Shown: piece after piece, positions 2,207 through 25,223 of the stretch
How the letters are laid out: each line of letters opens with the position of its first letter
Position numbering within the stretch: position 1 is the first letter of the stretch
Assembly: GCA_964373795.1 (NCBI GenBank)
Contig: CAYJVY010000004.1
Location: 60,001-92,000, forward strand
Reading direction: 5' to 3'
Origin: an uncultured archaeon
Lineage (GTDB): Archaea > Iainarchaeota > Iainarchaeia > Iainarchaeales > DATDZZ01
Length of the DNA: 32,000 nucleotides
Notes under the pieces: generated by a model
The model's database searches: none
What the model saw: only the letters and a program-made list of their open reading frames with translations
Told to the model about the DNA's origin: nothing
Position numbers and translations under genes: made by a program

Positions 2207-3878
2207 TAATCCAATTTCCTTGTTGAAATAATTTTTTGCCACACTTATTTTCTTCAATTTCATTATTTAGGTTAGTTAAAAAATTATTTTCATCAAATTC
2301 CTGCAAAATATTGTTTGAATTAAAGAAAACTATTCTATTCACTTTTTGATTATAAAGAAATTCACAAGAGCCAGAAGGAAACCCATCAAAAGAAAAAAAA
2401 TCCAGAATAAATGTATTCTCTAAGCCCAATAAAATCGGATTATATACGTTAGCAAAAAAAACTTTAGAAGAAAAATTATTTGGAATAAATTCATGTAATG
2501 CTTTAACGTAAGAATTTGAGTAAATTGACTCCGAGTTATTTAACAAATCAATTGCATTAGGAGAAATTACTATAACTGAATAAAAAAGTCCTAAAACAAA
2601 AACCAGTTTAGCTATATTTGAATATACGGTTTTTTCAAAAATAATTGAAGAAAAATATTTTCCCGCTAAAACACAAATCAATGCATATAAAGGCAAAAAA
2701 TATCGATAAGTAGATCCAAAAACAAATTCATTCACTTTGCCAAAACTTAAAATAATGAAAAAAATACTTATAAAAAAGGCTAAAAAAAGCGCATTCTTTC
2801 TTAAGTTTTTTGAAAAAAAAGCTAAAATGAAAAAAACAATTACAGGAATAAAATACAAACTTGTAAAAGCAATTAACAACTTATTTAAAACAATAAAAAA
2901 TAAATTAATCAATGGAGCCGATTGCGAAGGAATGCTTGAATATTTGGAATATAACCAAAGCAATGAACTTATTTTTGAAATAAAAAAGAATGAAGAAAAA
3001 ACAACAACTAAAGAAAAATACATCAATACCTCTTTGAGTTTCTTTGATTTAAGTAAAACAAAAACCAACAGAATTAGCAAAAAAACTAATCCAATAAATT
3101 TAGTTAAAATCATTGAAACTGCAAAAAAAACACTTAAAACAAAAAATGCTCTTTGTTGTTTTCTAAAATAAAGTTGAATAAAGTAGAAACTAATCAAAAA
3201 ATTCATTGTCAAAAATAAATCTGAAAGAAAACTATGTGATAAAAAGAAAACTGCCGAAGACAATCCAAAAAAAATCGAGGCAAACCAGTTATTTTTTTTA
3301 TCCTCAAGATTAGTTAATAAATAAATAATAAACAAAGTAAAAAGAAAAATAAATGCAGGAATTGACTTCCACATGAAAATGGAAAACATTCTAGTTAAGC
3401 CAGTAATTGATTCAAATAGTAATGGATATGTGTTTGCAATTACCTTAAATCCATTTAATTGCTCTTGATAGAAAGGCATTTTTCCATTTATGGAAAACTC
3501 ATTTATTAAAGGCAAGTGATAAGAAAGAGAATCAAAATGTAAATCTAAAGAAAAAAACAAAATAAATATTGAAAGAAAAAATAAAATAAAAATAAATATA
3601 ATAAAAGGATTTAAAAAAAACCGGAAATTAATTGAAAAAACATGTTTTAAGTTATTGAAATTTAATAAAAACAAAATCAAAAAAATTAAAGAAACAAAGT
3701 AAATAATAAAAATATTTATTGGAAGAAAAAAAGAAGTAAAATAAAAAATCAATCCAATTAAAGAAATTGAAACTGGAAAACACAAAACCACTATTTCCTT
3801 TTTTTCTAATTTTAAATAATTTAATAATATGATTCCTGGAATGAAAAAGAGTAAGATAAACAGAATTAATTCAACCAT
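2178..3878 (-). CDS. Large polytopic membrane protein with C-terminal soluble domain; possibly a GT-C-type glycosyltransferase (weak)
   Basis: 566 aa with more than 10 predicted hydrophobic helices followed by a soluble domain of about 130 aa. This resembles the PMT/ArnT-like layout. No WWDxG (AglB) motif seen. Confidence 0.5.
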   Translation of the reverse strand: MVELILFILLFFIPGIILLNYLKLEKKEIVVLCFPVSISLIGLIFYFTSFFLPINIFIIYFVSLIFLILFLLNFNNLKHVFSINFRFFLNPFIIFIFILFFLSIFILFFSLDLHFDSLSYHLPLINEFSINGKMPFYQEQLNGFKVIANTYPLLFESITGLTRMFSIFMWKSIPAFIFLFTLFIIYLLTNLEDKKNNWFASIFFGLSSAVFFLSHSFLSDLFLTMNFLISFYFIQLYFRKQQRAFFVLSVFFAVSMILTKFIGLVFLLILLVFVLLKSKKLKEVLMYFSLVVVFSSFFFISKISSLLWLYSKYSSIPSQSAPLINLFFIVLNKLLIAFTSLYFIPVIVFFILAFFSKNLRKNALFLAFFISIFFIILSFGKVNEFVFGSTYRYFLPLYALICVLAGKYFSSIIFEKTVYSNIAKLVFVLGLFYSVIVISPNAIDLLNNSESIYSNSYVKALHEFIPNNFSSKVFFANVYNPILLGLENTFILDFFSFDGFPSGSCEFLYNQKVNRIVFFNSNNILQEFDENNFLTNLNNEIEENKCGKKLFQQGNWIIILELSSST

Positions 3879-3908
3879 ACTAAGTATTTAATTAGGTAAA
3901 CATTTAAC

Positions 3909-5102
3909 TTAATTTGTTAAGTAAAACACTAACACTGGAAAAATTAAAAAAGCCATTAAATGAGTTCTTCTAATTCCATTGCTTATAGGAATTAAGCCAA
4001 TAAAAGTTGAAATAACTAATACAATTAATCCAATCAAATTAGTTAAAAAAGTTGCAAGCATTAAAACAAAAATTAATGAAAATAAATTCAATTGAAAATA
4101 ATTAATTTGTTCAATTAATTTAATTGCTTTAAAAGAAATCAAGTAAACTAAAATAGTTGAAAACCCAATTGCAAAAATAATTGTAAACAAAATAAATAAA
4201 ACATCTAAGTCATTTAATTGAAGAAGACTTTTTACCGCTAAAGCAGCTCCTGTCCTTGTCTTCCCAATAAAATACAATGAAAAAAATCCAAAAATGGCAT
4301 TAACAGTATTAATGCCTCCTAAAATAATTAAATAGTGGGAACGACTTATTTGTTTAAAAAATTGTTGCACTAAAAAACTTGCTTCACTTGGCCCTATTCC
4401 TGGAAAAATCGAAACAATTAATCCTGCAATTGAACTAATAAGAGTACATAAAAAAATAACTTTTCCATTATATGAATCATAGCTAAAAACTTGTTTTTTA
4501 ATAAAAGTTTTTTTAGTTAAACTATATAAAAGATTACTTAAACCAAAAAAACCAGTTATCACAACAAATAAACCATTTTGAACTTCAATTAAATTCCTTA
4601 AAACAATTATTCCTAAAAAAGAGGCTAAAAAAATTACGATTAACGAAATTAATTTTTTCTTATTATCTTCTTCAGAAAAAACCATTAAGAAAAGAGTTAA
4701 ACCTAAAACAACTGGAATTAAAAACTTGAAAAAAGAAAAAAATTTAATTAAAAATAATCCATAAAATGGAATTAAAAAAATTGAGAACACTCCTGCAAAC
4801 AAACCTCCCAAAGCAGTTAATTTAATTGCATACAATCCTCTTCCTTTCAAGAAATAGTGATGTCCTGGAAGAATTGATAAAAAAGTATCATCTGAAGGCG
4901 CACCTAATAAAATGCTTGGAATAAAGTCAAGAAAAGAATGAGTTACACTTAAAGCTACAATAAATAAGACTAAATGCAAATTATTTTCAGAAGCAAAAAG
5001 TAAAACCAAAAGAGAAATAGTATTAACATGAATTCCTGGAAGCAAACCTGTAAAAATTCCTGCAATGCATCCTAAAAAAATCCATGAAAGCAATTCAATC
5101 AT
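3909..5102 (-). CDS. DUF112 / TctA-like integral membrane permease
   Basis: 397 aa. The N-terminal GIFTGLLPGIHVNT and LLGAPSDDTFLSILPGHHYFLKGRG blocks resemble the TctA/DUF112 family. Its start overlaps the stop of the upstream OB-fold gene by 8 nt. Confidence 0.6.
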   Translation of the reverse strand: MIELLSWIFLGCIAGIFTGLLPGIHVNTISLLVLLFASENNLHLVLFIVALSVTHSFLDFIPSILLGAPSDDTFLSILPGHHYFLKGRGLYAIKLTALGGLFAGVFSIFLIPFYGLFLIKFFSFFKFLIPVVLGLTLFLMVFSEEDNKKKLISLIVIFLASFLGIIVLRNLIEVQNGLFVVITGFFGLSNLLYSLTKKTFIKKQVFSYDSYNGKVIFLCTLISSIAGLIVSIFPGIGPSEASFLVQQFFKQISRSHYLIILGGINTVNAIFGFFSLYFIGKTRTGAALAVKSLLQLNDLDVLFILFTIIFAIGFSTILVYLISFKAIKLIEQINYFQLNLFSLIFVLMLATFLTNLIGLIVLVISTFIGLIPISNGIRRTHLMAFLIFPVLVFYLTN

Positions 5103-11688: not shown

Positions 11689-13374
11689 TTAAATTTGTTT
11701 CTTCTCAAACAAAAACCGTTGAGTCTCTCTTACTACTTCATCAATTGACCTAATTCCTTTATCAACTAATGCTTGCAAAAATTTTTCTCTATCACTTAAA
11801 TCTTCTTTAATATCTTTTTTACTCAAACCACTTAATAATTCTATTTCTTTCAAGTACTTGCTTTGAACATCTGTTGCTTCCAAAGAATCTTTTACTGCAT
11901 TCCTTGAAAAAATTGTTTGCACTTGAATCTTTCCCTCTAAAACCCCTGAAACCTCTGCAATTTCAGTTACTCTTCTAATGCTTCCTTTTTTTCTGTCATG
12001 CAATCTATGCTGAATCAAAATCAAGTCAAGAGATGAAAGCATTAATTCAGGAACATTCATTGGAGGATTTGTAACTCTAACAATTGTTTCCTGAGGAGAA
12101 TTTGAATGAATTGTTCCAAGGCTTCCGTTATGCCCTGTATTCATTGCAGTAAACAAAGTAAAAGCCTCTGAATGCCTTACTTCTCCTACAACAATTCTAT
12201 CAGGCCTCATTCTCAAAGAATTCTTAGTTAAAATATCCATTGTAAGCTCTCCTTTTCCTTCCAATCCAGGAGGCTTTGCTTCTAATCTAATCCAATGACT
12301 TAAAGGAATATTTAATTCAGCTGTATCCTCAATTGAAACAATTCTTTCATTTGAAGGAATAAGCGAAGCCAACACATTTAAAGTAGTTGTTTTTCCAGAA
12401 CCAGTTCCTCCAGCAATTAAAGAATTTGAAGGCTTTACTCCAAAGCCATCAACTGAAAGCCATAAAAAAGCTGCAACTTCAACTGAAATAGTTCCATAAT
12501 TAATTAAATCAATTAAACTAAAAGGATCGTCTCTAAACTTTCTAATAGTTAAAGTCGAACCACTAACAGAAGCAGGAGGAATGGTTGCATTAACTCTAGA
12601 ACCATCAGGCAATCTAGCGTCAAGCAATGGATTTGAAATATCAACTCTTCTTCCAACTCCTCTTGCAATCTTGTTAATTAAATCTTGCACTTCAGTATCA
12701 GAGTAAAACTCAATATTGGTTAACATCATTTCATATTCTCTGTGAAAAACGTATACAGGAGTTTTAGGTCCAATAATCATTATTTCCTCTAATTTATTGT
12801 CTCGAATTAATTCATCAATTAAACCATATCCAACCATTTCTCTTACAACTGCATCAGCATAAAAAGGAAACTTTGATTCAGGAATATTCAATTCCTCTGC
12901 TTCTCTTAAAATGTCTAAAATTTTTTGAAAATAAACATTTCTCTTTTCTTCAGGATCCCTAATTTTATAAGGCTCTATTGCAATCAACCTAGTTGCCACT
13001 TCTTTAATAGTATTAATAATTGTTTTCTCAGTCAAATTCGGGCGAGGAACTGGAACATTATAGACAAGTAAATCCTGTCCTTCAACTTGAAAAATTTCAA
13101 CATTTCCATAAGCAGCAATCTTTGTTTTCTTTGAAGAAACCAAATCACTTTGAATTGAAGCAGTTTTAATTTTTGGAACTGAAACCTCTTCAATTTCTTT
13201 CACTTCTTCAACTGAATCAGTTTTTAAAGAAATTTTTGCAGATTCTTCAACAATTGGTTTTGGTTCTAAAACCTTTTTTTCTTCAGGTTTTTCTTTTACT
13301 GCAAAAAAGCCTTGAGAATACTTTAATTTTTTCTCCTTCTTTAATTTTTTAAACATTTCACTAAAAGAACTCAT
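11689..13374 (-). CDS. Type II/IV secretion-family assembly ATPase (FlaI/TadA/VirB11 superfamily)
   Basis: 561 aa. Walker A AGGTGSGKTTTLN, Asp box IVSIEDTAELN, Walker B RPDRIVVGEVR and His box TGHNGSLGTIHSNS. Has a K/E-rich N-terminal extension of about 90 aa. Confidence 0.9.
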   Translation of the reverse strand: MSSFSEMFKKLKKEKKLKYSQGFFAVKEKPEEKKVLEPKPIVEESAKISLKTDSVEEVKEIEEVSVPKIKTASIQSDLVSSKKTKIAAYGNVEIFQVEGQDLLVYNVPVPRPNLTEKTIINTIKEVATRLIAIEPYKIRDPEEKRNVYFQKILDILREAEELNIPESKFPFYADAVVREMVGYGLIDELIRDNKLEEIMIIGPKTPVYVFHREYEMMLTNIEFYSDTEVQDLINKIARGVGRRVDISNPLLDARLPDGSRVNATIPPASVSGSTLTIRKFRDDPFSLIDLINYGTISVEVAAFLWLSVDGFGVKPSNSLIAGGTGSGKTTTLNVLASLIPSNERIVSIEDTAELNIPLSHWIRLEAKPPGLEGKGELTMDILTKNSLRMRPDRIVVGEVRHSEAFTLFTAMNTGHNGSLGTIHSNSPQETIVRVTNPPMNVPELMLSSLDLILIQHRLHDRKKGSIRRVTEIAEVSGVLEGKIQVQTIFSRNAVKDSLEATDVQSKYLKEIELLSGLSKKDIKEDLSDREKFLQALVDKGIRSIDEVVRETQRFLFEKKQI

Positions 13375-14283: not shown

Positions 14284-16509
14284 TCACTTTAATTCTCTTG
14301 ACTTAATTTCTTTCAATAATTCTTTCACAAACTCATCCACTTTAACTCCAAAACTAATCTTTCCATCCCTTGATCTAACAGCTAAAGATTTACTTTTAAC
14401 TTCTTTTTCTCCAATTGTAATAATGTAATTCACTTTCTCTAATTGCGCGTCTCTAACCTTTTTACCAATTGACTCGCTTCTAGAATCTAATTCAACTCTA
14501 ACAAAGTTTTTCCTCAAATTTTGTTCAACTTCTCTAGCAAATTCTTCACATTTATCGTTTACAGTAATAATTTTTACTTGCACTGGAGAAAGCCATAAAG
14601 GAAACCTTCCATTAAAATGTTCAATTAAAATTCCAATAAATCTTTCAAAGCTTCCAATTAAAGCTCGATGAATTATTACAGGAAAATGTTTTTTTCCATC
14701 CCGTCCCTCGAAAGATAAATTAAATCTTTGAGGCATTTGGTAATCCAACTGAATTGTGGCTAACTGCCAAGAACGATTTAAAACATCTTTTACATGCAAA
14801 TCAATTTTAGGGCCATAAAAAGCTCCGTCTCCTTCATTAACTCTGAATGCTTTTCCAGTTTTCTTCAACGCATTCTTCAAAGAAGTTTCAGCAGAATTCC
14901 ATGACTCAATTTCTCCTAAAAACTTTTCAGGCCTAGTTGATAACTCTATTGAGTAATTCTTGAAACCAAAAGTTGAATAAATCTTGTCAATTAATTTCAA
15001 TAAATTAAAAATTTCTTGCTCTATTTGTTCTTGAGTACAAAAAATATGCGAGTCGTCTTGAGAAAGCTTTCTCACTCTTATAAGGCCATGCACTACTCCA
15101 GACAATTCATGTCTATGCAAATTTCCAAAATCAGCAATCCTTAAAGGCAATTCTTTATACGAACGAGTTCGTTCAGAAAAAATCAAGCAATGGCTTGGAC
15201 AATTCATTGGCTTTAAAGCAAACTCTCTTTCATCAATTTCTAATTCATACATGTTTTGCCTATAATGACTCCAATGCCCGGATGTTTCCCACAAACTTTT
15301 TGAAAAAATTTGAGGAGTTCTAACAACTTTATATCCTTCAAAAAAATAAATTTCCTCCAAAAAATTTCTAATCTCTCTCCAAACAATGTAACCTTTAGGT
15401 AAAAAAAACGGCATTGCAGGAGACTCTTCATGAAAAGAAAACAATTCTAAATCATTTCCAAAAACAAAATGAATTATTTTTTCAGCCTCGTCACATTGCT
15501 TTAAAAAATCCTCTAAATCTTTTGCAGAAGAAAAAGCAATTCCTTGAATTCTTGTCAAAGACTCTTGCTGAGAATCGCCTTTAAAATATGCATTAGAAAT
15601 TGTCAAAAGTTTTATTGCACCAATTTTTGAAGACTCTTTCAATACTGCATCCTTAAACAAGCCAACTTGCTTCAATTTTCCAAAACCGTAAACTGGAACA
15701 TCTTTCTGTAAATCAGAAACAATTTTTGAAACAACTTTGAAATTCTTGAATTCTTTTTCAGCATCCTTTTTTGTTAAAAATTCTTGGCTAAAAGAATTTT
15801 TCTTTGAAAGCAATTCAGAAACCATTGCTTCAATTTTCGCGAAATCAGTTTCCTTTAACTTCAATCCAAAAAAATCAACTGTAAAGCCTTCCCTTAAAAC
15901 ATCAATCAAAACATTTTCTGTGCCAGAAAACAATTCCTTGACAGCAGAAGAAACAATCAAACCCGAAGAAAAATTCAATTTCTCTTCTTCAGTGAGTTTT
16001 TTCCCACTAACCTCTAAAGGCTTTGCTTCCATTTTTTTCTGTTTCATTACAGTTTTTGTTTCAATTTTTTGTTCTCCGTTCCCTGCATTTATAACTCTTG
16101 ATAATTCAGCTAATGGATGTCCTTTAGCTGTTAAAGAAAATTTTTTATACCAGCCAAAAGGAGCTTTGTGTACTTGAAAACCTTTTTCATGCAATCTTTT
16201 TTCGGCTAACTGCATTATTTTAATAGCTGTTCCAGGTTTTGAAGGAAGCTTTCCAAACAATAAATGCACATAGGGATAAAGAACTATATTCTTTGACTTG
16301 ATTTGACCTGAAATGTCTTCAATGTTTTCCACTAATTTTTCAGCTACTTTTTCTTCATTAAAATCATCTTCTTGAGAAAAACTCATGAAAACAGTTAAAC
16401 ATTCATTAAATTTTTGTTTCTTTAAGTTTCCAGGCAACTCCTCTGCAAGTCTTGTTTTTTGCTTTACTTCTACATTTAATTCATCTGAATGAATAAACAA
16501 TGCATGCAT
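14284..16509 (-). CDS. thrS: Threonine--tRNA ligase with archaeal-type N-terminal editing domain
   Basis: 741 aa. Class II core: FALKPMNCPSHCLIF, RIADFGNLHRHELSG, LSQDDSHIFC, GDGAFYGPKIDL and HRALIGSFERFIGILIEH. Has an anticodon-binding C-terminus. The N-terminal MHALFIHSD...LYPYVHL block resembles the archaeal ThrRS editing domain. Confidence 0.9.
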   Translation of the reverse strand: MHALFIHSDELNVEVKQKTRLAEELPGNLKKQKFNECLTVFMSFSQEDDFNEEKVAEKLVENIEDISGQIKSKNIVLYPYVHLLFGKLPSKPGTAIKIMQLAEKRLHEKGFQVHKAPFGWYKKFSLTAKGHPLAELSRVINAGNGEQKIETKTVMKQKKMEAKPLEVSGKKLTEEEKLNFSSGLIVSSAVKELFSGTENVLIDVLREGFTVDFFGLKLKETDFAKIEAMVSELLSKKNSFSQEFLTKKDAEKEFKNFKVVSKIVSDLQKDVPVYGFGKLKQVGLFKDAVLKESSKIGAIKLLTISNAYFKGDSQQESLTRIQGIAFSSAKDLEDFLKQCDEAEKIIHFVFGNDLELFSFHEESPAMPFFLPKGYIVWREIRNFLEEIYFFEGYKVVRTPQIFSKSLWETSGHWSHYRQNMYELEIDEREFALKPMNCPSHCLIFSERTRSYKELPLRIADFGNLHRHELSGVVHGLIRVRKLSQDDSHIFCTQEQIEQEIFNLLKLIDKIYSTFGFKNYSIELSTRPEKFLGEIESWNSAETSLKNALKKTGKAFRVNEGDGAFYGPKIDLHVKDVLNRSWQLATIQLDYQMPQRFNLSFEGRDGKKHFPVIIHRALIGSFERFIGILIEHFNGRFPLWLSPVQVKIITVNDKCEEFAREVEQNLRKNFVRVELDSRSESIGKKVRDAQLEKVNYIITIGEKEVKSKSLAVRSRDGKISFGVKVDEFVKELLKEIKSRELK

Positions 16510-16901
16510 TTTAATTTCTCCTGAAAAAAGTTATTAAACAAATAATTAAATTAGTATCCATTGAAAGCAATTCAATGCATTTAAATGAATTAAAAAAAGG
16601 GTTCAGAAAAAGATTAAATGATTTAATTAAGTTCTGCAAAAATCTCCAAATATGTTTGAAGATAAGTGGGATAAAAACCTTCTACACTTATTTCAGAATT
16701 CATAACAATCTCTGAAAATATTAATGCCAAGCCAAAGTATTTAAATAAACTCAAAACAAGAATGTATCAAAAAGTACAGTCAAAAAAATTCAAAGGAAAT
16801 AAAATTAGTTTTTGCACGCTATTTGTCGAAATTGAAAATAGAAATATAACAACATTCTAATTTATTTTATTAGCATCAAAATCTAGGCAATGTTTTAATA
16901 T

Positions 16902-16924
16902 TAGTTATAACAATAGTTATAACA
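16902..16924. promoter_or_regulatory. Tandem 11-bp repeat TAGTTATAACA x2 (period 12), each containing the palindrome GTTATAAC; candidate TA operator
   Basis: Copies at 16902-16912 and 16914-16924, ending 16 nt before the GTG start of the toxin-like gene at 16940. Confidence 0.45.
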
Positions 16925-16939
16925 TGAATAAGTGGTTTT

Positions 16940-17227
16940 GTGAAAGACTGGATAAAAACAATCCTGAATGCATTCAACAGGAATACAATATTTATTCATT
17001 TTAGCTTCCACATAGAGTTAAAAAATCTTACACGAAATCTTGACCTTGACAATGTATTCAAAACCGTTAGAAAAGGAAAAGTACTTGAAGCAAAATCAAT
17101 ATATCCTGACAGAATTGCCTTTTATCACTTTTTCAAAGAAGGATTTACATATGTTGCAATTGTGAAGATTTATCCAAACTCTTTCAAAGTAATCACTGCA
17201 TGGAAAAATAAAGGAAGAAAGATATGA
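16940..17227 (+). CDS. DUF4258-like putative toxin
   Basis: 95 aa. FSFHIELKNLTRNLDLDNVFKTVRKGKV plus the C-terminal FKVITAW resemble the DUF4258 pattern (H-A-x-x-R...I, ending V-I-T-x-Y/W). It overlaps the next gene by 4 nt (ATGA). Confidence 0.45.
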   Translation: MKDWIKTILNAFNRNTIFIHFSFHIELKNLTRNLDLDNVFKTVRKGKVLEAKSIYPDRIAFYHFFKEGFTYVAIVKIYPNSFKVITAWKNKGRKI

Positions 17228-17532
17228 AAAAAATAAGATGCCCTTGCGGAGGCGTGTTTGAAGAAAAAAAAGTAAAGACTGAAGGATTTTTAGTTGATGG
17301 ACTAAAATGCAACATGTGTGGGGAGATTACTTTTTCCTTACAACAATTCAAAAAAGTTTTCAGGTTTAGACAGTTAGCAAAAGAAATTGACTCAACAAAA
17401 AAAATTGTTCAAATTGGAAACTCAATTGGCTTAATTCTTCCAAAAGGAATAGAAAAACTTGGACTCAAAGTTGGCGATAAAGTAAAACTAAAACTGGAAA
17501 ACAAGAAAAAGATGGAACTAATTTTAGAGTAA
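17224..17532 (+). CDS. Putative antitoxin: N-terminal Cys4 zinc ribbon fused to C-terminal AbrB/SpoVT domain
   Basis: CPCGG...x...CNMCGE is a MqsA/YgiT-like zinc ribbon. VQIGNSIGLILPKGIEKLGLKVGDKVKLKL is an AbrB/SpoVT swapped-hairpin motif. Confidence 0.6.
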   Translation: MKKIRCPCGGVFEEKKVKTEGFLVDGLKCNMCGEITFSLQQFKKVFRFRQLAKEIDSTKKIVQIGNSIGLILPKGIEKLGLKVGDKVKLKLENKKKMELILE

Positions 17533-17588
17533 TTCAAAGGAAATCTTCTCTGAAAATGCATTTAAACAAATTCTGTTAAAAGTTTTTA

Positions 17589-18836
17589 ATGACTGTAACT
17601 CCTTCTCCAAAGGTTTGCATTAAATGCAAGGGCCGTTTGTGGTGCGGGCCAAAGTGTTTTATTCTTGAAAAGTTTGAACACAAAAAAAGCTTAGTACAAA
17701 AAGCTGGAAAAGAATTTCAAGGAAACTCTCCTCCAGGAGTTTTCGTTTCCTGGCAAAATTATCCAAACATTTCAATTGCTCCACTCAGTCCAACTCAAAT
17801 TGTTGAAAACGCAGATTTATTAGACAATCCAGAAAAATGGATTACTCTTTCAAGCGAAAAAATTGTTTCCTTCCGCGAACAACTCATTAGGCCAACTGAA
17901 AAAATTTTTGCAAAACAAGCAGCAAATCCAAGCAACAGAGTGCAAAAAATTCAAGAAATTGTAATGACTGAAAAAAGCCCTGTAATGGAAATTTCTCTTC
18001 AAAGAGAGCCAAACACTGAACTACGCTTTAGTGATTCCACTGCACCGATTGGTCCAAGCGCTCCATTAAAAGAATTTCATGTAACAGAAAATGTGAAAAT
18101 TGATTCAAAAATTGACTACATTGTTTCGGATACGGATTTGAAGGCAAACCTTGGGCTGAAAGAATTGTATGAGAAAGGAATTCAAGTAAGCAGGCTGGAA
18201 AAATTGATAAGTGCTGGATTGCTTGGAGTGAAGAAAAATCGAAAATTTACGCCGACAAGATGGTCAATTACTGGAACACATTCCAATCTTTCACTGCAGA
18301 TGATTGACAGGATTCGCGAATTTGAAGAAATTGACTGCTGTAAAGTTTTCCAATCACACTATTTGGACAATCATTGGTTTATTTTGCTGATTCCACGCTC
18401 GTGGAGTTATGAACAAATGGAAGTCTACAGGCCTGGAGCAAGTTGGAATTTGTTCGGAAAAGACATAGAAATTTCTTCAGATTATGAATTCTTTGAAGGC
18501 AGAAAAAATTATGCCGAGAATGTTGCAGGAGGATATTATGCTTCAAGGCTTGCAATCTGCGAATATTTGGAAAAAGTACAAAAACAGGCAAGTGTTGTGA
18601 TTTTCCGAGAAATCGGACCAGAGTATAAAGTTGGATTGGGAGTTTGGCAGTGTTTGGAAAATTGTAGAAACGCAATGCAGAATTCCCCACAAGATTTTCC
18701 GAATTTGAATTCCTCTCTTGAATTTATTTTTTCAAATCTTACTATTCCACGCAAGTTTTGGCTGGAAACAAGCAAAGTTTTAAAATTTATTAAAACCCAA
18801 ACCAGGATTACTGATTGGTTTAAAGCAAAGGCTTAA
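17589..18836 (+). CDS. nreA: Archaeal Nre-family protein (DNA repair-associated NreA)
   Basis: 415 aa. The N-terminal CIKCKGRLWCGPKCFIL Cys cluster and PPGVFVSWQNYPNISIAPLSP match my recollection of the Nre_N signature (C-x2-C...LCG...CP; PS-VFVG-x-x-YP-x-V-x-x-GPL). Confidence 0.55.
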   Translation: MTVTPSPKVCIKCKGRLWCGPKCFILEKFEHKKSLVQKAGKEFQGNSPPGVFVSWQNYPNISIAPLSPTQIVENADLLDNPEKWITLSSEKIVSFREQLIRPTEKIFAKQAANPSNRVQKIQEIVMTEKSPVMEISLQREPNTELRFSDSTAPIGPSAPLKEFHVTENVKIDSKIDYIVSDTDLKANLGLKELYEKGIQVSRLEKLISAGLLGVKKNRKFTPTRWSITGTHSNLSLQMIDRIREFEEIDCCKVFQSHYLDNHWFILLIPRSWSYEQMEVYRPGASWNLFGKDIEISSDYEFFEGRKNYAENVAGGYYASRLAICEYLEKVQKQASVVIFREIGPEYKVGLGVWQCLENCRNAMQNSPQDFPNLNSSLEFIFSNLTIPRKFWLETSKVLKFIKTQTRITDWFKAKA

Positions 18837-18876
18837 ATTTATTGAATTAGCAATTATTATAGGAAGTGATGAATTT

Positions 18877-19533
18877 ATGCCAGGGCACGAGCCACCAAAA
18901 AAGCCAAGGACAGGGAAAACCACTAGGACTGTTAGACTTCCGCCTGGAAAAACTCCAGATAATACAAGGGAGCTTTTAAGAGAAATTGGTATTAATGTTC
19001 CAAAAACAGAAAAAAGGCCTACAACTGTAAATGTTAAAGACATGGATTTGAAATTAACAGAAGCACAATCAATTGCTTTAAGCTGGGCGCAACATTTGAA
19101 CAGCGTGCCACATATAAAAGATGTTGCTGATGCATTGGACACAAAATTAAGACAAAAAGGCATTAACACCAGAAAAGTTATAAGAGAATTCCCACAAGAC
19201 AGGACTTCAAAAACAAACATTGCTATTACAAGATACAGGCTAATAAGGACAGCAAAAGAAATATGGTATGCAAAAGAAGAGTTGAAAAACAACACTGATC
19301 CAGAAAAGGTTGATGAATTGAAGGAAAAAATTCGCGCTGCTGAAAGAAAACTTACAATTGGATTAGATGCAAGCTGGAGATTTTTCGAAGGCATGGCAAT
19401 AAAAAGCCGTAATCCAGTGCTTAGAGAGTTTGCAGACGAATTGCATGCTCTTTATGACCCAACAAAAAAAGTAAGGGAAGAATTTGTAGAACTTATTGGC
19501 AGTACAAGCAAAAGAGCGCACAAACCACAATAA
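18877..19533 (+). CDS. Basic protein of unknown function, paralog family member A
   Basis: 218 aa. Shares four collinear blocks with the 20950 protein: LLREIGINVPK/LLRDIGIRVPK, IALSWAQHLNSVPHIK/IILGWAKEVNANPEIK, IAITRYRLIR/ITIAKYRLIR and NPVLREFADEL/NTGLRAFVNEL. Confidence 0.65.
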   Translation: MPGHEPPKKPRTGKTTRTVRLPPGKTPDNTRELLREIGINVPKTEKRPTTVNVKDMDLKLTEAQSIALSWAQHLNSVPHIKDVADALDTKLRQKGINTRKVIREFPQDRTSKTNIAITRYRLIRTAKEIWYAKEELKNNTDPEKVDELKEKIRAAERKLTIGLDASWRFFEGMAIKSRNPVLREFADELHALYDPTKKVREEFVELIGSTSKRAHKPQ

Positions 19534-19644
19534 AAAAGCAAGCCAGCCTGAAAAGTAATGCCTGCAAAAACAGAAAAGAATTACTGAATGACTGCAAGCA
19601 AAAACTTAAATCAAGCAATGCCTAAATTTATTTAAGGCGAAAAA

Positions 19645-20328
19645 TTGCATAAACCTGTAAAACCATTAAAACATAGTGTAAAGCCAGTGGAACATCCTGT
19701 AAAAGAAGAGCCCAAAACTGTTACAGCCACACATGTTTTTCGTATTCCAAGAGAAGAAAAAACAGAGTCAAGACCTATTACACGAAAAAGAGTAATTAAA
19801 AGAGAAGAACTACTTAAACCAAAATTTCATGCAATTCTAAGAAAATGGTTTAATCATTTAAGAAAATTTAAAAAAATAACTCAGTTAGCTGCAAGAATAA
19901 AGATTCCAGAGCCTTTAACTGAATTAGAAGAAATATATGGAAATACATTTGACAGAACATTAAAAGAATTAGCAAGACTATTAAAAAGAGAACTAATCCC
20001 TGAAGAAAAAATTGCGTTATACATGTCAGCAATTATAAGAAAATCAGTTAATGTTGCGAGAAGCAAATCTGGAACAGAGTTCCTTGAAGGCTTTGAAGAC
20101 TTAAAAGATTTTTTCTTTTCATCAAATTATTTTAATTTATTTGATTCAAAGCATTCACTTGGAAAAGAATTCATGGAAGAATTAAATCAATTCAGGCAAG
20201 CTCCTGAAACAATGCTTGAAGCAGTAACAGAAATGCTGCAAGAAACAGATAAAGAAAAAGAATTACAAGAACTAGCTAAACAATTACCTGGCATTAAAAG
20301 AATGCATTTACCTGAATTCAAAAAATAG
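19645..20328 (+). CDS. Basic protein of unknown function (TTG start)
   Basis: 227 aa. The N-terminus has a repetitive KPVKPLKHSVKPVEHPVKEEPK stretch. No recognisable domain. Confidence 0.5.
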   Translation: MHKPVKPLKHSVKPVEHPVKEEPKTVTATHVFRIPREEKTESRPITRKRVIKREELLKPKFHAILRKWFNHLRKFKKITQLAARIKIPEPLTELEEIYGNTFDRTLKELARLLKRELIPEEKIALYMSAIIRKSVNVARSKSGTEFLEGFEDLKDFFFSSNYFNLFDSKHSLGKEFMEELNQFRQAPETMLEAVTEMLQETDKEKELQELAKQLPGIKRMHLPEFKK

Positions 20329-20339
20329 AAGGAAAATAA

Positions 20340-20924
20340 ATGTTAAAAAGAAATCGTCCCTCGGTTAAAACTCAAATTGAAAGATTTCCAAGAATTGCTT
20401 TAGAAGAAATGTTTTGGCAAAAACAACCAAGAAAACCTCTACGTAAAGCCGGAACAAATAGAAAACCAAATTCAGTTCAAATTACTAATCCAATAAAAGG
20501 ATTAAAAGGAGAAAGAAGTTCAATTCACACACATATAGGGGCAACACATGCAAATATTTCAAAAATAAGCCTTCCTTCAGCAGCTGATTTAGCTGCAATG
20601 GTTATTCAAGTTTTTTCAAGGCCTAGAACAATTAGAACTCATGCAATTGCATTAATAAACAAACAAGGAAAAGTAATTGGATATAAAGTAATTCGCATTC
20701 CAACAATTCTTTGGAGAAAAATGAGAACAAAAAAATACTTGCAAGACAAGCGAATTAAAAGATTAATGCATTTAGCTGTTTCAATAGGTTTTTTTGGAAA
20801 CAAAAAGAAAAAATATTTAAAAGAAAGACTAGAAATGCAGAGATTACTTGAAGAACTTGAAGTGCAAACAAGGTTTGTAAAAATTCCTTTAAAAGCAAGC
20901 AGAAAAAAACAACAAAAGCCTTAA
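20340..20924 (+). CDS. Basic protein with JAMM-like H-x-H...S-x-x-D motif (possible divergent JAB/MPN)
   Basis: 194 aa. E22/E23 ... SSIH(63)TH(65)IGATHANISKISLPS(80)AAD(83)L parallels SIHSHPSYINLPSNADL of the 543-908 JAB protein, but with 14 residues between the second His and Ser instead of 7. Confidence 0.5.
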   Translation: MLKRNRPSVKTQIERFPRIALEEMFWQKQPRKPLRKAGTNRKPNSVQITNPIKGLKGERSSIHTHIGATHANISKISLPSAADLAAMVIQVFSRPRTIRTHAIALINKQGKVIGYKVIRIPTILWRKMRTKKYLQDKRIKRLMHLAVSIGFFGNKKKKYLKERLEMQRLLEELEVQTRFVKIPLKASRKKQQKP

Positions 20925-20949
20925 ATACCTTAAATTCAAAGGATATTTA

Positions 20950-21468
20950 GTGAGAAAAATGAGAAGAGAAACAACTAGAAGAATTGGACTCAAAAAAGAA
21001 AAGACAGAAAAACTTCTTAGAGATATAGGAATTAGAGTGCCAAAACCTCCATCAAAACCAGAAAAAGCAAGACAAATTATTTTAGGATGGGCAAAAGAAG
21101 TTAATGCCAACCCTGAAATAAAAAAAACTGGAGATAGTATAAGTTCAGAAGAAAGAACAAAAATGACAGATACAATAAGAAGAGTTAAAAGTGGAACTAG
21201 ACAAGAACTTACAATAGAAGAACATATTACAATAGCTAAATACAGGTTAATAAGAATGTTTAGAAGGGCAGCAGAAAATAAAACAATAAAATCATTAGTT
21301 ATAGACGGATTAAGAATTGCTACTGCTGATTTTGAAAAACTTCTTCAAAGAAATCCAAGCAATACAGGTTTAAGAGCATTTGTCAACGAATTAACAGATT
21401 TAACAACAGACAGTCTTCTACTAGACTCAGTATTTCAAACAGTTGGATCAGTCAAAAAAAAGCCATAA
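20950..21468 (+). CDS. Basic protein of unknown function, paralog family member B
   Basis: 172 aa (GTG at 20950, alternative ATG at 20959). Collinear motif blocks are shared with the 18877 protein. Confidence 0.65.
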   Translation: MRKMRRETTRRIGLKKEKTEKLLRDIGIRVPKPPSKPEKARQIILGWAKEVNANPEIKKTGDSISSEERTKMTDTIRRVKSGTRQELTIEEHITIAKYRLIRMFRRAAENKTIKSLVIDGLRIATADFEKLLQRNPSNTGLRAFVNELTDLTTDSLLLDSVFQTVGSVKKKP

Positions 21469-21551
21469 ATTTAATATTCTTTTTAGACACCAAAAATTTG
21501 ACAATTCTTCCATAGCAAGCTTTAAATATTTCAAAACATTTTATTTTTTCT

Positions 21552-21758
21552 ATGCTGGATAATATTTTGAATCTCCATTATGGAGAAAGAAAAAGAGTAA
21601 ATCAAGAACTTCGTGCTTTCAGAGTTCCAATCCAAGTAATAGGAAACATGCCTGAAAAAGAACAACTTGAATTGCTTTCAACACTGAAAACAAAGAAAAG
21701 AAAAACTGAAATCGACTTCATTATAGAAGAATTAAGAACTAAATACGAAGACAAATAA
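21552..21758 (+). CDS. Small hypothetical protein
   Basis: 68 aa ORF, same strand as the cluster, K/E-rich, no motif. Confidence 0.4.
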   Translation: MLDNILNLHYGERKRVNQELRAFRVPIQVIGNMPEKEQLELLSTLKTKKRKTEIDFIIEELRTKYEDK

Positions 21759-21911
21759 AAAAACTATTTCAAAAACATTTAATCAGTAAGAATTCTTTTT
21801 TGCCGTATTACAGGTAGAACATGCAAGTAAGCTCTTTCATCTCTCCAAGTTTGACGCCTTAAAGCAAAAACCATTAAATACTATAAAAGAAGAATTATTT
21901 AAGGGAAATAA

Positions 21912-22394
21912 ATGCGAATTCAATCTATTAGAGAACTGCTTTTAAGAAGAAGAGAATTAAAAACACAGATTAGAGAAAAACTTGAAAAAGATAAAGCAAA
22001 AATGTTGACTCGAACAAGACAAGGACTAAATTTTTGGGCTAAAAAAATTAAATCAGATGAAGAGCTTTCTCAAGCAGTAAAAGCAGTTGGACTTACTGAA
22101 GAAGCAAAAGTATTAGCTCAAAACCTTAGAGGAAGGGATGCAACAGTCGGAGATGAATTAAATTTTGAAATGCTTAAACTAATTACTCTTGGAAAATCAG
22201 TTGCATTAGGAAAAAAAGGAAAAGAGCTTCTACAAAAAGAATTCAGAAAAATGTTAAGAGAATTAGAAATATTATTTGATGAAAATCCTGAAAACGAAGA
22301 CTTAGGGAACTTTTTACTTGAAATGCTTATTTGGAGTCATAACCCAGATTCATTTATTCAAGTAATTAAAGAACAATTATCAAAACCAAAATAA
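21912..22394 (+). CDS. Protein of unknown function, probable distant paralog C of the 18877/20950 family
   Basis: 160 aa. LNFWAKKIKSDEEL, FEMLKLITLGK and NPENEDLGNFLLEML occur in the same order as the W-A-K/Q, Y-R-L-I and NP..L..F..EL blocks. An AAGGGA Shine-Dalgarno lies upstream. Confidence 0.55.
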   Translation: MRIQSIRELLLRRRELKTQIREKLEKDKAKMLTRTRQGLNFWAKKIKSDEELSQAVKAVGLTEEAKVLAQNLRGRDATVGDELNFEMLKLITLGKSVALGKKGKELLQKEFRKMLRELEILFDENPENEDLGNFLLEMLIWSHNPDSFIQVIKEQLSKPK

Positions 22395-22423: not shown

Positions 22424-22795
22424 TTATTTAACAAATTCAACATTTTCAAAATGCTCGAATTGTTTGTCTCCAGTGAGGAACTTTACATGTAAACGTTTTG
22501 CAACAACATACCCTATACAGTCTGCCATTGAAAGATTTGATTTTTTGTTGTCAAATCTAAAATTTGCAGCAAATTTTATGTCAGTGTCATCAAAGTCAAC
22601 TACAAACTTTTTAAATCTTTGAAGAAGTTCTTCTGCTTTTTCAAAGCCAAAGTCTTTCAATGAACCATAGTATATTTCAAACAAATTAAGTTTTGTTAAA
22701 ACAACAATTGAATCAAAATATACCTTATAATTCTCATTTTTTTTAGCTATTGAAAATATAGCATAAGAATCAAAAAAATAAACCTTATCTGCTAT
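22424..22795 (-). CDS. vapC: PIN-domain toxin (VapC-like); N-terminus lacks a canonical start codon
   Basis: The track ORF (22424-22684) starts at an internal TTG. The open frame continues upstream as ..IFIADKVYFFDSYAIFSIAKKNENYKVYFDSIVVLTKLNLFEIYYG. This restores the full PIN acidic quartet D(FFDS)-E(LFEI)-D(MADC)-D(TGDK). Only ATT, ATC and ATA are available as starts before the stop at 22820-22822. Confidence 0.6.
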   Translation of the reverse strand: MADKVYFFDSYAIFSIAKKNENYKVYFDSIVVLTKLNLFEIYYGSLKDFGFEKAEELLQRFKKFVVDFDDTDIKFAANFRFDNKKSNLSMADCIGYVVAKRLHVKFLTGDKQFEHFENVEFVK

Positions 22796-23009
22796 AAAGA
22801 TCTCTCCTAACTGAATCCTTTATTTCTTGAGCGGATTTTTTTACACTTTTTGCAAATCCAAAAATTTCTCTTAAATCATTTGTTTTTTTGGCAAAAATTA
22901 CTGTAATTTTTTCATTCTCTTTAAGATGCTCTTTTTCAACAATCTCTTTTGGAATAATAACTCCAAAAGAATTCCCCCACTTTTTTATAACCACGCTACG
23001 CTCAGACAT
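22785..23009 (-). CDS. vapB: AbrB/SpoVT-domain antitoxin (VapB-like)
   Basis: The ATG at 23009 is preceded by a GGTGG Shine-Dalgarno. MSERSVVIKKWGNSFGVIIPKEIVEKEHLKENEKITV is an AbrB/MazE-type fold motif. The gene overlaps the PIN reading frame. Confidence 0.7.
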   Translation of the reverse strand: MSERSVVIKKWGNSFGVIIPKEIVEKEHLKENEKITVIFAKKTNDLREIFGFAKSVKKSAQEIKDSVRRDLYSR

Positions 23010-23074
23010 TAAACCACCAATAAAATAGTTATACAAAGTATAATTTAAATGTATCGAAAATAGCTAACAAATAT

Positions 23075-24040
23075 TTACTGTTTTTTTTGAGGCATGAATT
23101 GCACTAAAAGCGCTTCTAATTGAATTCTTTCATTAGCGCCTTCTACAATTCGAAAATCATATTCGCCTATTTTGTCTACTAAAAAGATTTTTGTTTTTGC
23201 ATCCACATGCTTTTCATCTAAATCCATTAACTCTTTATACAATTGAGTTATTACGTCTTCGCCGGACATGCCAAATTCATACAACAATAAATCTAGTTTT
23301 TCTCTGGCCTTCAAAAAATCTCCTTTTAAAGCCAATAAAATCATTTCCTTAACTTGTTCTGGCCTTGCTCTTGAAGCAACATTAAAAATTACTTCCTCTG
23401 AAATTTTTTCTTCAAGAGAAGCAGCTGATTGAAGAACATTAATTGCTTTTCTTACATCTCCTTCAGCTACGTAAACAATTGCATTCAAAGCCTTTTCCTC
23501 TACTTTTAATTTTTCTTTTTCAATTATTTCATTCAATTTTTCTTTAACTTTTTCACTAGATAAAGGCCTAAAACGAAAAACAACACATCTAGACTGAATT
23601 GGTTCAATTAATTTACTTGAATAATTGCAAGACAAAATAAAGCGAGTTGTTTTAGTGTATTTCTCCATGGTTCTACGCAAAGCCTGTTGAGCATCACTTG
23701 TTAAAGCATCTGATTCATCTAAAAAAATTATTTTAAATTTTGCATTCAAAGCCAATGTTCGCGCAAAATCCTTTATAGTTGAACGAACAACATCAATTCC
23801 TCTTTCATTACTTGCATTTAATTCTAAAAAGTTTTGCTCAAATGCTTCTCCAAAAAGCTCTCTAGCTAAAGCAATTGAAGCAGAAGTTTTTCCAACGCCT
23901 GCAGGCCCGGAAAACAACATGTTAGGCAAAGAACCTTTTAAAATATATGACTTCAATCGCTTAGTTATTTCTTCTTGACCAATTACTTCATCTAATTTGT
24001 GCGGCCTGTACTGTTCAATCCAAGGCAATCCAATCTTCAT
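23075..24040 (-). CDS. rfcS: Replication factor C small subunit
   Basis: 321 aa. PWIEQYRP, Walker [10 protein letters not shown], Walker [15 protein letters not shown] motif [10 protein letters not shown] and GDVRKAIN. No intein. Confidence 0.9.
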
Positions 24041-24142: not shown

Positions 24143-24493
24143 TTGACTGTAAAAGAAGAAAAAGGAATTCACATTGTTACTTCAAATTTTATTCCAGGAT
24201 TCAAAGTCAAAGAAGTGAAAGGACTTGTATGGGCAAGCAGCGTTAGATCAAAGTTTTTCTTAGAAGACTTAAAAGCCCACATTAGAATGTTTTTAGGCGG
24301 AGAAGTAAACGAATACACTAACTTGTTAAACGAAGGCAGATGGGAAATAATGAATAAATTAAATTCAAATGCAAAAAAAATGAATGCAAATGCAGTAATT
24401 GACATGAAAATGGCTACAAGTCAATTAATTGGTTCAACAGTTGAAATGCTTGCATATGGAACTGCTGTAGTCATTGAAAAAGAAAAAAAGTAA
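24143..24493 (+). CDS. YbjQ/UPF0145 family protein
   Basis: 116 aa (TTG start). VTSNFIPGFKVKEVKGLVWASSVRS...GGEVNEYTNLL...ANAVIDMKM...MLAYGTAVV matches the UPF0145 pattern. Confidence 0.7.
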   Translation: MTVKEEKGIHIVTSNFIPGFKVKEVKGLVWASSVRSKFFLEDLKAHIRMFLGGEVNEYTNLLNEGRWEIMNKLNSNAKKMNANAVIDMKMATSQLIGSTVEMLAYGTAVVIEKEKK

Positions 24494-24506
24494 CTGTGAT
24501 GCTTAA

Positions 24507-25223
24507 ATGAATGAAAACCAAGAATTTAAAGAAGAAGTAAAAAAATTCATTAAAGTTACAGGCCCACTTGAAGCACTAAAATCAAATGAAGAATTTCATC
24601 CATTCAAAATTGCTCGAACATTTATATTGTTTGCAGCAACTTATTTAATTTTATATTTTGGAGTAATTCTAAGTGTTCCATTGCATGGATTTTTAATTGA
24701 TGTATTAACTGCTGCAAACACTTTTCTGCCAATTTTTTGGCCAATTAAATCACTTGTTGAAACAATTCTTCCTTTAGGGAAATGGGATTCTCCAATGTAT
24801 TTCTTGCTTCCAATTCCTGGATTCTTTTTAATGTATTACTTAACTGATTGGTTAGATGAATTCTTTGAATTAAACGACGACTTTCACAACAAGTTATTTG
24901 TATTAGTTTTCTGGATTCTGGTATTAGCAGGATATGCTATTAGCTTGCTATGGTATTACTATAATTTTTATGTTTTAACACTAAACAATTACGCTCAATT
25001 AAAAGAAATAGGACTAAGTTTTACCCAATACTTATTTGGAGGACAATTATCCAATGGGCAAACCTATGGAGGAACTGGATTCAATTATTGGGGAGAATTA
25101 AAAAACTCAGCATATCTAGTTTTCTGCATTGCTGCATTTCTTGCATGGATTTCCAGAAAATTCGTGAAAAACATTATAGATGCAAAAATTAAAAGGTTTA
25201 TTAAAACAGAAAATGCCGAATAA
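24507..25223 (+). CDS. Membrane protein of unknown function
   Basis: 238 aa, about 5 hydrophobic helices, aromatic-rich, no motif. Confidence 0.5.
   Translation: MNENQEFKEEVKKFIKVTGPLEALKSNEEFHPFKIARTFILFAATYLILYFGVILSVPLHGFLIDVLTAANTFLPIFWPIKSLVETILPLGKWDSPMYFLLPIPGFFLMYYLTDWLDEFFELNDDFHNKLFVLVFWILVLAGYAISLLWYYYNFYVLTLNNYAQLKEIGLSFTQYLFGGQLSNGQTYGGTGFNYWGELKNSAYLVFCIAAFLAWISRKFVKNIIDAKIKRFIKTENAE

Follow-up and report, generated by a model that had tools for sequence, protein, structure and literature searches.

A cluster of six orphan genes with a putative tandemly duplicated family in a variable chromosomal interval of an Iainarchaeota genome

Introduction

The DNA considered here is a stretch of 32,000 nucleotides, called the window in what follows, from an uncultured archaeon (assembly GCA_964373795.1, contig CAYJVY010000004.1, positions 60,001 to 92,000 of the forward strand). 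The window, which NreA homologues from reference genomes also place in Iainarchaeota (Diapherotrites, DPANN), is part of an ordinary chromosome of this lineage, with genes for type IV pilus/archaellum-like assembly, threonyl-tRNA synthetase (ThrRS) with an archaeal editing domain, NreA, the small subunit of replication factor C (RFC), an Lrp/AsnC regulator, topoisomerase I, and a TrmB regulator. Between nreA and a vapBC-like toxin-antitoxin (TA) pair lie six consecutive genes on the plus strand, designated p218, p227, p194, p172, p68, and p160 by the length of their products. A preliminary description of this DNA had presented them as genes for basic proteins without known domains, including a three-member paralogue family and bracketed by TA pairs, and as the best candidate in the window for an undescribed system. 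The present analysis compared the locus with 23 related loci, 10 from reference genomes and 13 from metagenomes. The Pfam scans covered the six open reading frames (ORFs) of the cluster, the four TA ORFs, and 25 further ORFs of the window (nearly all of at least 90 aa).

The Six Genes and Their Products

From nreA–p218 to p68–p160, the genes are separated by gaps of 40, 111, 11, 25, 83, and 153 bp. The first of them, p218 (18877-19533, plus strand), is the founding member of the family discussed below and encodes 218 aa, with an N-terminal tail rich in Pro, Lys, Arg, and Thr followed by a helical body. It is followed by p227 (19645-20328, plus strand; 227 aa), which begins with TTG and is a probable remote fourth paralogue, and by p194 (20340-20924, plus strand; 194 aa), whose product has a pI of 11.6, a net charge of +36, and a degenerate JAMM/MPN-like segment at residues 64-118. 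The fourth gene, p172 (20950-21468, plus strand; 172 aa), is a clear paralogue of p218; it has a GTG start, and an alternative ATG at 20959 would give a form of 169 aa. The last two are p68 (21552-21758, plus strand; 68 aa), a small orphan without relation to the other five, and p160 (21912-22394, plus strand; 160 aa), a putative remote paralogue of the family. The plus-strand arrangement, the short gaps, and the basic character reported in the preliminary description are all found at this place: the isoelectric points (pI) range from 9.05 to 11.60 and the content of Lys plus Arg from 20 to 24%. In five of the six proteins the N-terminal 45 residues have a net positive charge (+5 in p218, where they include eight prolines), and none of the six has a membrane-spanning hydrophobic segment.

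The reality of these genes was assessed with a codon model trained on 14 conserved genes of the window, housekeeping genes being scored leave-one-out. The annotated frames of the six genes score +0.12 to +0.46 bits per codon (+0.33 for p218, +0.12 for p68) and the housekeeping genes +0.23 to +0.46; the remaining five frames of each gene lie at about zero or below (maximum +0.12, mostly negative). An antisense ORF of 204 aa over p218 (18780-19394), with a codon score of +0.02, is a shadow frame of that gene. Since the scores of the annotated frames match those of housekeeping genes and promoter-like elements precede five of the six, the ORFs are real, host-adapted protein-coding genes. The coding signal, for which a check had been proposed, is thus there in the codon scores, with the dS-based measure of purifying selection being uninformative.

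Searches of the six proteins against Pfam, NCBIfam, PADLOC, and PDB sequences returned nothing significant, in keeping with the lack of known domains described earlier, and each protein is a singleton at 90% identity clustering. In PHROGs the sole match is a weak local one of p68, residues 27-64 of which match PHROG 5736, a 'transcriptional regulator' (E 7e-5). The same protein reaches the Cdc6_C winged helix of Pfam at E 0.07, with no match in the PDB and no viral relative in IMG/VR. It may be a DNA-binding regulator.

Five of the six genes, all but p194, have the hexamer TTAAAT 20-44 nt ahead of their start codon; among random 50-nt windows, 11% contain it. The longer pattern GCAAR-N1-5-TTAAAT has six sites on the two strands of the 32 kb. 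Of these, four precede p218 (GCAAAGGCTTAAAT, 18825-18838, plus strand), p227 (GCAAAAACTTAAAT, 19598-19611, plus strand), p68 (GCAAGCTTTAAAT, 21515-21527, plus strand), and p160 (GCAAAAACCATTAAAT, 21864-21879, plus strand); a further one precedes the conserved Lrp/AsnC gene, and p172 has a variant of it (ACAAAAGCCTTAAAT, 20912-20926, plus strand). From general knowledge of archaeal promoters, we take these elements to be the host's architecture of B recognition element (BRE) and TATA box. The genes look individually transcribed because each except p194 has its own BRE/TATA-like element, which suggests five separate transcription units and not a single operon. Co-transcription of p227 and p194 is likely, since p194 begins 11 bp after the stop codon of p227. 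A 14-mer, AATTCAAAGGAWAT, is also found in three intergenic copies, all on the plus strand, upstream of the left TA pair (16787-16800), nreA (17531-17544), and p172 (20933-20946). The number expected is 0.36, none of 100 shuffles has three or more, and no extended similarity surrounds the copies.

A Family of Diverged Paralogues

BLASTP aligns the products of p218 and p172 over 199 columns at 30% identity (E 8e-14). The four conserved blocks listed in the preliminary description are all there, and the two are clear paralogues, as had been proposed. The membership of p160, the third protein of the family as first described, is more remote. Neither p160 nor p227 reaches significance by BLASTP or with a two-sequence hidden Markov model (HMM), the alignment of p227 with p218 being collinear over 180 columns at E 0.043. 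In profile-profile comparisons by hhalign with a family profile of three sequences, p160 scores 33.9 (E 9e-5, 126 collinear columns, probability 59%) and p227 scores 29.7 (E 8e-4, 64 columns, probability 25%). The controls were 100 shuffles each of p160 and p227, which stay at or below 23.4 (maximum for p160, 23.2), and the 31 window proteins outside the family, which stay at or below 18.6. Leave-one-out profiles, with alignments of 111-114 columns, give 26.5 for p160 and 27.2 for p227 (114 columns), the shuffle maxima being 20-21, and against p172 alone p160 scores 26.0 over 141 columns. Because the profile-profile scores of p160 and p227 exceed both the shuffles and the window background, p218, p227, p172, and p160 can be regarded with moderate confidence as diverged tandem copies of one family. 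The inclusion of p160 is therefore backed, but the count of three probably becomes four with the addition of p227. In the hhalign comparisons p194 and p68 have no link to the family or to each other.

The structure of p172 was modelled with AlphaFold2 from an alignment of three sequences; as for the remote paralogues, alignments of 3-5 sequences confer a moderate reliability. The model is all-helical with nine helices, residues 1-16 and 27-34 being disordered, and has a predicted local distance difference test (pLDDT) value of 67 and a predicted template modelling (pTM) score of 0.59. A Foldseek search with this model, of the kind recommended earlier for each protein, gave no significant fold match, the best E values being 0.6 in the PDB and 0.19 in BFVD. 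The matches to generic or designed helical bundles were non-significant and were rejected as the fold of p172, and so was the best hit, an S23 ribosomal protein/Avd-type four-helix bundle (2rld; E 0.6, TM score 0.30-0.38). Both the S23/Avd-type protein and p172 are small, basic, and helical, but neither a reverse transcriptase among the Pfam-scanned ORFs of the window nor a template/variable repeat was found.

Distribution of the Family and Its Rate of Divergence

The orphan status in large protein databases was addressed, in individual or profile searches, for p218, p172, and p194. Searched against 5.8 billion protein clusters with k-mer seeding, p218 and p194 each matched nothing but themselves. 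With a profile of p218 and p172, an exhaustive HMMER run over 1.84 billion representative proteins returned p218, the ATG-start form of p172, and two further proteins, P0004 and P0005. To judge from its sequence, the latter (1405 aa) is probably a repeat protein of eukaryotic origin, with six repeats producing the match, and was treated as spurious. The sole true additional homologue is P0004, a protein of 168 aa (E 1.7e-5; MDO8627946.1) from a 'Diapherotrites' metagenome-assembled genome. Its gene lies on a 1.3-kb contig (L013), where it follows the 3′ end of nreA immediately, at a spacing of 180 bp versus 40 bp in the window; the next gene on this contig seems to encode a membrane protein. 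The C-terminus of NreA in L013 is 72% identical to that of the window, against 34-45% in all other relatives, and this genome is the closest relative available. Since P0004 is 25-32% identical to p218 and p172, the family evolves far faster than nreA, its core neighbour.

Neither the six proteins nor the family profile has a match in the 23 more distant related loci, and the set and order of the six genes are absent from all of them. The family is thus confined to a narrow lineage, and from one visible copy in L013 it has expanded to probably four in the window. Conservation of the gene order, which had been put forward as a check, is not seen in any other genome, and one homologue of one family is all that occurs elsewhere; the comparison is weak for the nearest relative, whose contig measures 1.3 kb. 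The idea of an undescribed system of six genes finds no support in these comparisons, since the order is not seen elsewhere, the family occurs in two genomes, and the gene set in one strain. As to a co-occurrence with nreA, a family member does lie beside this gene in both carrier genomes, but 22 more distant relatives with nreA lack the family. Inherited position is the simpler reading of the shared adjacency, as the two genomes are close relatives.

Other basic proteins encoded near nreA in the relatives were also considered. N-termini of the type MP..P.KK had suggested a shared basic protein downstream of nreA in all relatives; this candidate was rejected, as a profile of the L004 and L005 proteins finds only those two, and hhalign gives no link between these 160-aa proteins and those of the window. 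The two loci have their own basic orphan of about 160 aa in the nreA–rfcS interval (L004, 12807-13289; L005, 11296-11790), unrelated to the window family, which represents a second lineage-restricted family at the same place. Upstream of nreA, an identical basic orphan of 235 aa with an internal repeat is found in L003 (9031-9735), L015 (264-968), and L026 (2847-3551); it was rejected as a relative of p218, the match being a local one of 28 columns at E 0.06-0.09.

p194 as a Putative JAMM/MPN Remnant

For the core of p194 a single relative is detectable, encoded 20 kb away in the window, at 543-908 on the minus strand, by a genuine AfJAMM-type Prok-JAB gene (Pfam PF14464, 5e-10, 39.6 bits; AfJAMM in the PDB, 1r5x and 1oi0, E 4e-27). 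Residues 64-118 of p194 (THIGATHANISKISLPSAADL) align in the same register with residues 64-121 of this JAMM protein (TIIGSIHSHPSYINLPSNADL), with 28.5 bits and a pairwise E of 1e-5 by BLASTP. When the JAMM protein is compared with 35 window proteins, p194 is the sole match (E 7e-4), and one in 3000 shuffles of p194 reaches the score.

The preliminary description had noted a JAMM-like motif in one member of the cluster. A JAMM-related core is indeed there, but the 'HTH' at residues 63-65 is off the homologous position, lying 14 residues before the Ser and not 7, and the true motif is HxN. It reads T-H70-A-N72...S80-x-x-D83, where the enzyme has H70-S-H72; S80-A-A-D83 is in register with S80-N-A-D83 of the AfJAMM orthologue, and the 7-residue spacing is kept. 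The zinc-binding H-x-H pair is therefore not present at the homologous position in p194, the second zinc ligand being replaced by Asn. In ungapped register E23 coincides with the catalytic Glu, with only 3 of the 63 N-terminal residues identical and the hydrophobic strands replaced by basic sequence; these 63 residues are not alignable to the JAMM protein, and a basic helical tail of 75 residues follows the core. No JAB-family Pfam model matches p194 at E ≤ 1, and neither the whole protein nor its core segment finds a JAMM chain in the PDB at E ≤ 10. A single-sequence AlphaFold2 model is unusable (pLDDT 47), and its Foldseek matches, β-meander fragments of about 40 residues, were discarded as meaningless.

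Compared with the JAMM/MPN+ proteins (Prok-JAB/AfJAMM, PF14464), p194 matches the motif helix and the C-terminal strands and keeps the first His, the Ser, and the Asp, but it differs in the Asn at the second His, the unalignable basic N-terminus, the added basic tail, and a similarity below detection by Pfam and PDB searches. It resembles a catalytically dead MPN- domain or domain fragment and not a peptidase. Because one zinc ligand and a recognisable N-terminal half are lost, p194 is probably a degenerate, inactive MPN-like remnant. An origin from a local duplicate of the genome's own JAMM gene would fit, because p194 resembles the JAMM protein of this genome and not the solved JAMM proteins.

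The Variable Interval Between nreA and rfcS

On the left, the cluster is flanked by nreA (17589-18836, plus strand; Pfam Nre_N 5e-81, Nre_C 3e-33), and on the right, beyond vapBC, by the gene for the small subunit of replication factor C, rfcS (23075-24040, minus strand; Pfam Rep_fac_C and AAA). Both are syntenic in relatives: the order ThrRS – nreA> <rfcS – downstream genes is kept in the 10 reference and 13 metagenome loci wherever the contig is long enough. The interval between nreA and rfcS measures from about 0.2 to 4.2 kb across lineages, with unrelated content in each. It is shortest in L017 (about 0.2 kb), which has no ORF of at least 90 aa and only short ones of 60-82 aa. In L005, L006, L008/L021, and L020 it spans 0.57-0.71 kb and holds a single unrelated orphan or short ORFs. 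Lineage-specific cargo occupies about 1.9-2.1 kb in L004, L007/L016, L010, and L014 and 4.0 kb in L011/L025; the 4.2 kb of the window contain the six orphans and vapBC. The cargo of other lineages comprises a ParE-type toxin pair, a CoA-binding protein with a methyltransferase, an AAA_14/DUF4143 ATPase with a DDE transposase fragment, proteins that look secreted or membrane-bound as judged by sequence, and other orphans. The six genes and vapBC occupy a variable chromosomal hotspot, because the flanks nreA and rfcS are conserved while length and content of the interval vary by lineage. The accessory nature of the region had been proposed before and is borne out by these relatives, in which nreA and rfcS, where both are on the contig, keep their convergent order around 0.2-4 kb of unrelated content. 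The region is like other chromosomal hotspots or accessory islets in its conserved flanks, its near-empty state in L017, and its lineage-specific cargo including TA genes and a transposase fragment, but differs in that the window cargo is dominated by a tandemly expanded family, with no recombinase, attachment (att) sites, or transfer-type composition.

Directly adjacent to the cluster, and convergent with p160, is the vapC-like PIN gene (22424-22783, minus strand), of which the ORF first listed, 22424-22684, covers 86 aa from a TTG start. That ORF scores 21.6 bits for PIN and, when 33 upstream in-frame codons are included, 28.0 bits, which is above the cut-off. These codons (22684-22783) encode the missing N-terminal part of the PIN domain (..VYFFDSYAI..), and there is no ATG, GTG, or TTG among them, so vapC either is a pseudogene that lacks a start codon or is translated from a non-canonical start or by coupling. 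The vapB-like gene for an AbrB/MazE antitoxin lies upstream of it (22785-23036, minus strand; Pfam MazE_antitoxin 32.6 bits, E 8e-8). The right flank thus fits a VapBC module, a PIN toxin adjacent to an AbrB/MazE antitoxin with the antitoxin upstream and a full-length PIN domain without canonical start. On the left, the pair at 16940-17532 consists of overlapping genes, as in a TA module, with scores of 21.4 bits for DUF4258 (cut-off 25) and 23.2 bits for MazE/AbrB (cut-off 24.7), and is set apart from the cluster, as the core gene nreA lies between them. The statement that TA pairs bracket the cluster on both sides therefore stands for vapBC, the only pair directly adjacent, but not in the same way for the left pair, which is below the Pfam cut-offs and beyond nreA.

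Neighbouring Regions of the Window

The intervals between ThrRS and nreA and between rfcS and the conserved gene at 25280 vary in a similar manner. The former measures from about 0.03 to 3.2 kb in relatives and in the window (16509-17589) holds the DUF4258/AbrB-like pair. The latter measures 0.56-3.5 kb in relatives; in the window (24143-25223, plus strand) it contains a YbjQ-family gene, without match in the relatives, and an orphan of 238 aa whose only match, in L007, is marginal (E 9e-7). The composition at the left end of the cluster had been read as a sign of an accessory or mobile island, which does not hold: the GC content of 0.36-0.37 is mostly that of the core gene nreA, plus p218. 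The lowest GC content in the window is found within 968-5100 (0.22-0.25 over about 1500-5000, with a strong AT skew from about 2000), where two large ORFs, 968-2206 (plus strand) and 2178-3878 (minus strand), have no Pfam match.

Two further observations concern core genes. The T2SSE/FlaI-like ATPase of 561 aa (11689-13374) has homologues in several relatives whose open frames run to about 1,100 codons (L003, 3257-6622; L005, 4684-7965; L006, 1867-5190; L011, 358-3807), which suggests that the ATPase of these relatives carries an intein or other large insertion missing from the window copy. In L001, a Logan contig of 11.4 kb (ERR3478686) otherwise identical to the window, eight mismatches are clustered within 42 bp of the ThrRS gene (window 15454-15495). 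All would be non-synonymous, and they are probably an assembly or sequencing artefact and not strain variation.

Interpretation of the Cluster

The reading that we favour, with a confidence a little above even, is that of a lineage-specific accessory gene cluster in a variable hotspot, built around a tandemly duplicated orphan family and acting by non-enzymatic binding of nucleic acid or of partner molecules. One fast-evolving family of basic helical proteins would have been duplicated in tandem, in place, to the four copies p218, p227, p172, and p160, with a decayed JAMM/MPN derivative (p194) and a small orphan (p68) interspersed among them, all within a chromosomal interval that accepts insertions and in which TA genes accumulate as well. 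The proteins would be soluble and would mostly begin with a short, strongly basic stretch. They may act without enzymatic activity, binding nucleic acid or chromatin- or replication-associated partners, as dispensable and fast-evolving accessory factors. Such binding is our best guess because of the positive charge, the basic N-termini, and the missing catalytic signatures. The proteins belong to no described family, and the paralogue family is a new one inside a familiar kind of genomic feature.

Several points weigh against this reading. The nucleic-acid binding is deduced from charge, and no helix-turn-helix, ribbon-helix-helix, zinc-finger, or other DNA-binding domain was recognised in the Pfam, PDB, and fold searches. 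The membership of p160 and p227 is drawn from modest profile probabilities, 59% and 25%, obtained with a three-sequence profile. The ratio dN/dS was dropped as a test of selection, since dS between the paralogues and the orthologue is saturated at 1.2-1.6 and dN/dS is then uninformative. The same strain is found in three other sequencing runs (Logan contigs) with a cluster sequence 100% identical, which leaves no variation to analyse. Finally, the presence of a family member beside nreA in both genomes could mean a functional link and not mere inherited position.

Among the alternatives, the cluster could derive from a virus or plasmid that integrated here and then decayed, the basic orphans being its DNA-binding or structural proteins and the TA genes its addiction modules. 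Tightly packed genes on one strand without homologues, the adjacent vapBC, the weak match of p68 to a phage transcriptional-regulator PHROG, and an interval that is an insertion hotspot, which in other lineages carries TA genes and a fragment of a DDE transposase, all speak for such an origin. On the other hand, no integrase, transposase, reverse transcriptase, capsid, or replication gene of an element was found among the Pfam-scanned ORFs of the window. There is no tRNA that could have been an integration target and no Rfam match in the 32 kb, and no att-like repeat pair brackets the cluster. Relatives were sought and not found in IMG/VR (with the family profile, p194, p227, p160, and p68), in GenBank phages by tblastn, and in PLSDB plasmids by blastn, and the search of BFVD gave no fold match. 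Codon usage is like that of core genes, and a family member at the same position in a second genome, with an NreA 72% identical, fits vertical inheritance better than independent integration. We therefore consider a viral or plasmid remnant unlikely.

The cluster could also be a new conflict system, devoted to anti-virus defence, anti-defence, or host interaction, with the paralogues as specificity or decoy modules and p194 as a signalling or processing part. A variable hotspot beside TA genes, the tandem expansion to four copies, and the fast divergence relative to the neighbouring core gene (25-32% versus 72% identity) would all be expected of it, and JAB domains occur in defence systems such as Bil and, as Cap3, the cyclic-oligonucleotide-based anti-phage signalling system (CBASS). 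Against these points, PADLOC (PADLOC-DB v2) found nothing in the six cluster and four TA proteins except one noise match (E 0.034), and the six proteins have no nuclease, ATPase, sensor, or effector domain in Pfam or NCBIfam. Moreover, p194 has neither the N-terminal half of the fold nor the second His of the zinc site, and the gene combination occurs in no other genome, which leaves no ground for guilt by association. A conflict system is accordingly a rather improbable explanation. The earlier remark that no integrase, capsid, or known defence domain is visible agrees with the Pfam and PADLOC results; the suggestion of a defence or mobile island is not sustained, in view of these negative searches and of host-type codon usage and promoter-like elements.

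A third alternative makes the family a lineage-specific accessory factor of the repair and replication machinery of NreA, PCNA, and RFC, similar in status to TIP. NreA is a PCNA-dependent repair factor (PMC4929162). The C-terminus of the window's NreA carries a canonical PCNA-interacting protein (PIP) box, QTRITDWF, at residues 404-411 (18798-18821, plus strand), which fits that described role (PMC4929162); its N-terminus contains a Cys cluster, CIKCKGRLWCGPKC. The proteins are basic, a member follows directly on nreA in both genomes, that of the window (40 bp) and that of L013 (180 bp), and the other flank of the interval is rfcS. TIP, the Thermococcales inhibitor of PCNA, is a small, lineage-restricted partner of the archaeal replication machinery, and both TIP and the cluster proteins are small, narrow in lineage, and encoded among replication and repair genes (PMC4929162). 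The comparison is nonetheless one of analogy, since there is no sequence similarity and the cluster proteins have no strict PIP motif: a strict search of the six proteins and P0004 was negative, and a loosened pattern gives one site, in P0004 only. In addition, the 22 more distant relatives with nreA are without the family, p218 has its own promoter-like element, the next gene in L013 is not a family member, and the close kinship of the two genomes means that the shared position may be simple inheritance. A role as a partner of NreA, PCNA, or RFC seems improbable on these grounds.

A bolder possibility is that the cluster represents a new fold family, rapidly diversified through tandem duplication, whose members act jointly with p194 as a dead MPN- paralogue of AfJAMM, for instance in the manner of the MPN+/MPN- pairs of eukaryotic deubiquitinase complexes, or in which the proteins are chromatin or PCNA factors of NreA repair; we regard it as very doubtful. 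Lastly, that some or all of the ORFs are chance frames in A-rich DNA is scarcely credible: homologues outside the lineage are missing and p68, besides being short, scores lowest in the codon model, but the codon scores are frame-specific and equal to those of housekeeping genes, amino-acid blocks are kept between the paralogues and with P0004 despite saturated synonymous sites, the promoter-like elements are correctly placed, and 3.5 kb are nearly all long ORFs on one strand.

Concluding Remarks

As it now stands, the cluster is well delimited but an ordinary group of accessory orphans, with a family found in two genomes only. DPANN archaea have a very large share of genes without assigned function, and the accessory cluster described here would illustrate how a block of orphans may originate: by tandem duplication in place, very rapid divergence within a hotspot, and decay of a duplicated JAMM domain, and not by the arrival of a recognisable mobile element. 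If the reading with a dead MPN- partner of the JAMM enzyme, or that with an NreA/PCNA factor, were true, the cluster would amount to a new module, of regulation or conflict, peculiar to Iainarchaeota. Archaeal chromosome biology would gain a layer specific to this lineage if the family turned out to bind DNA or to have NreA, PCNA, or the JAMM enzyme as a partner.

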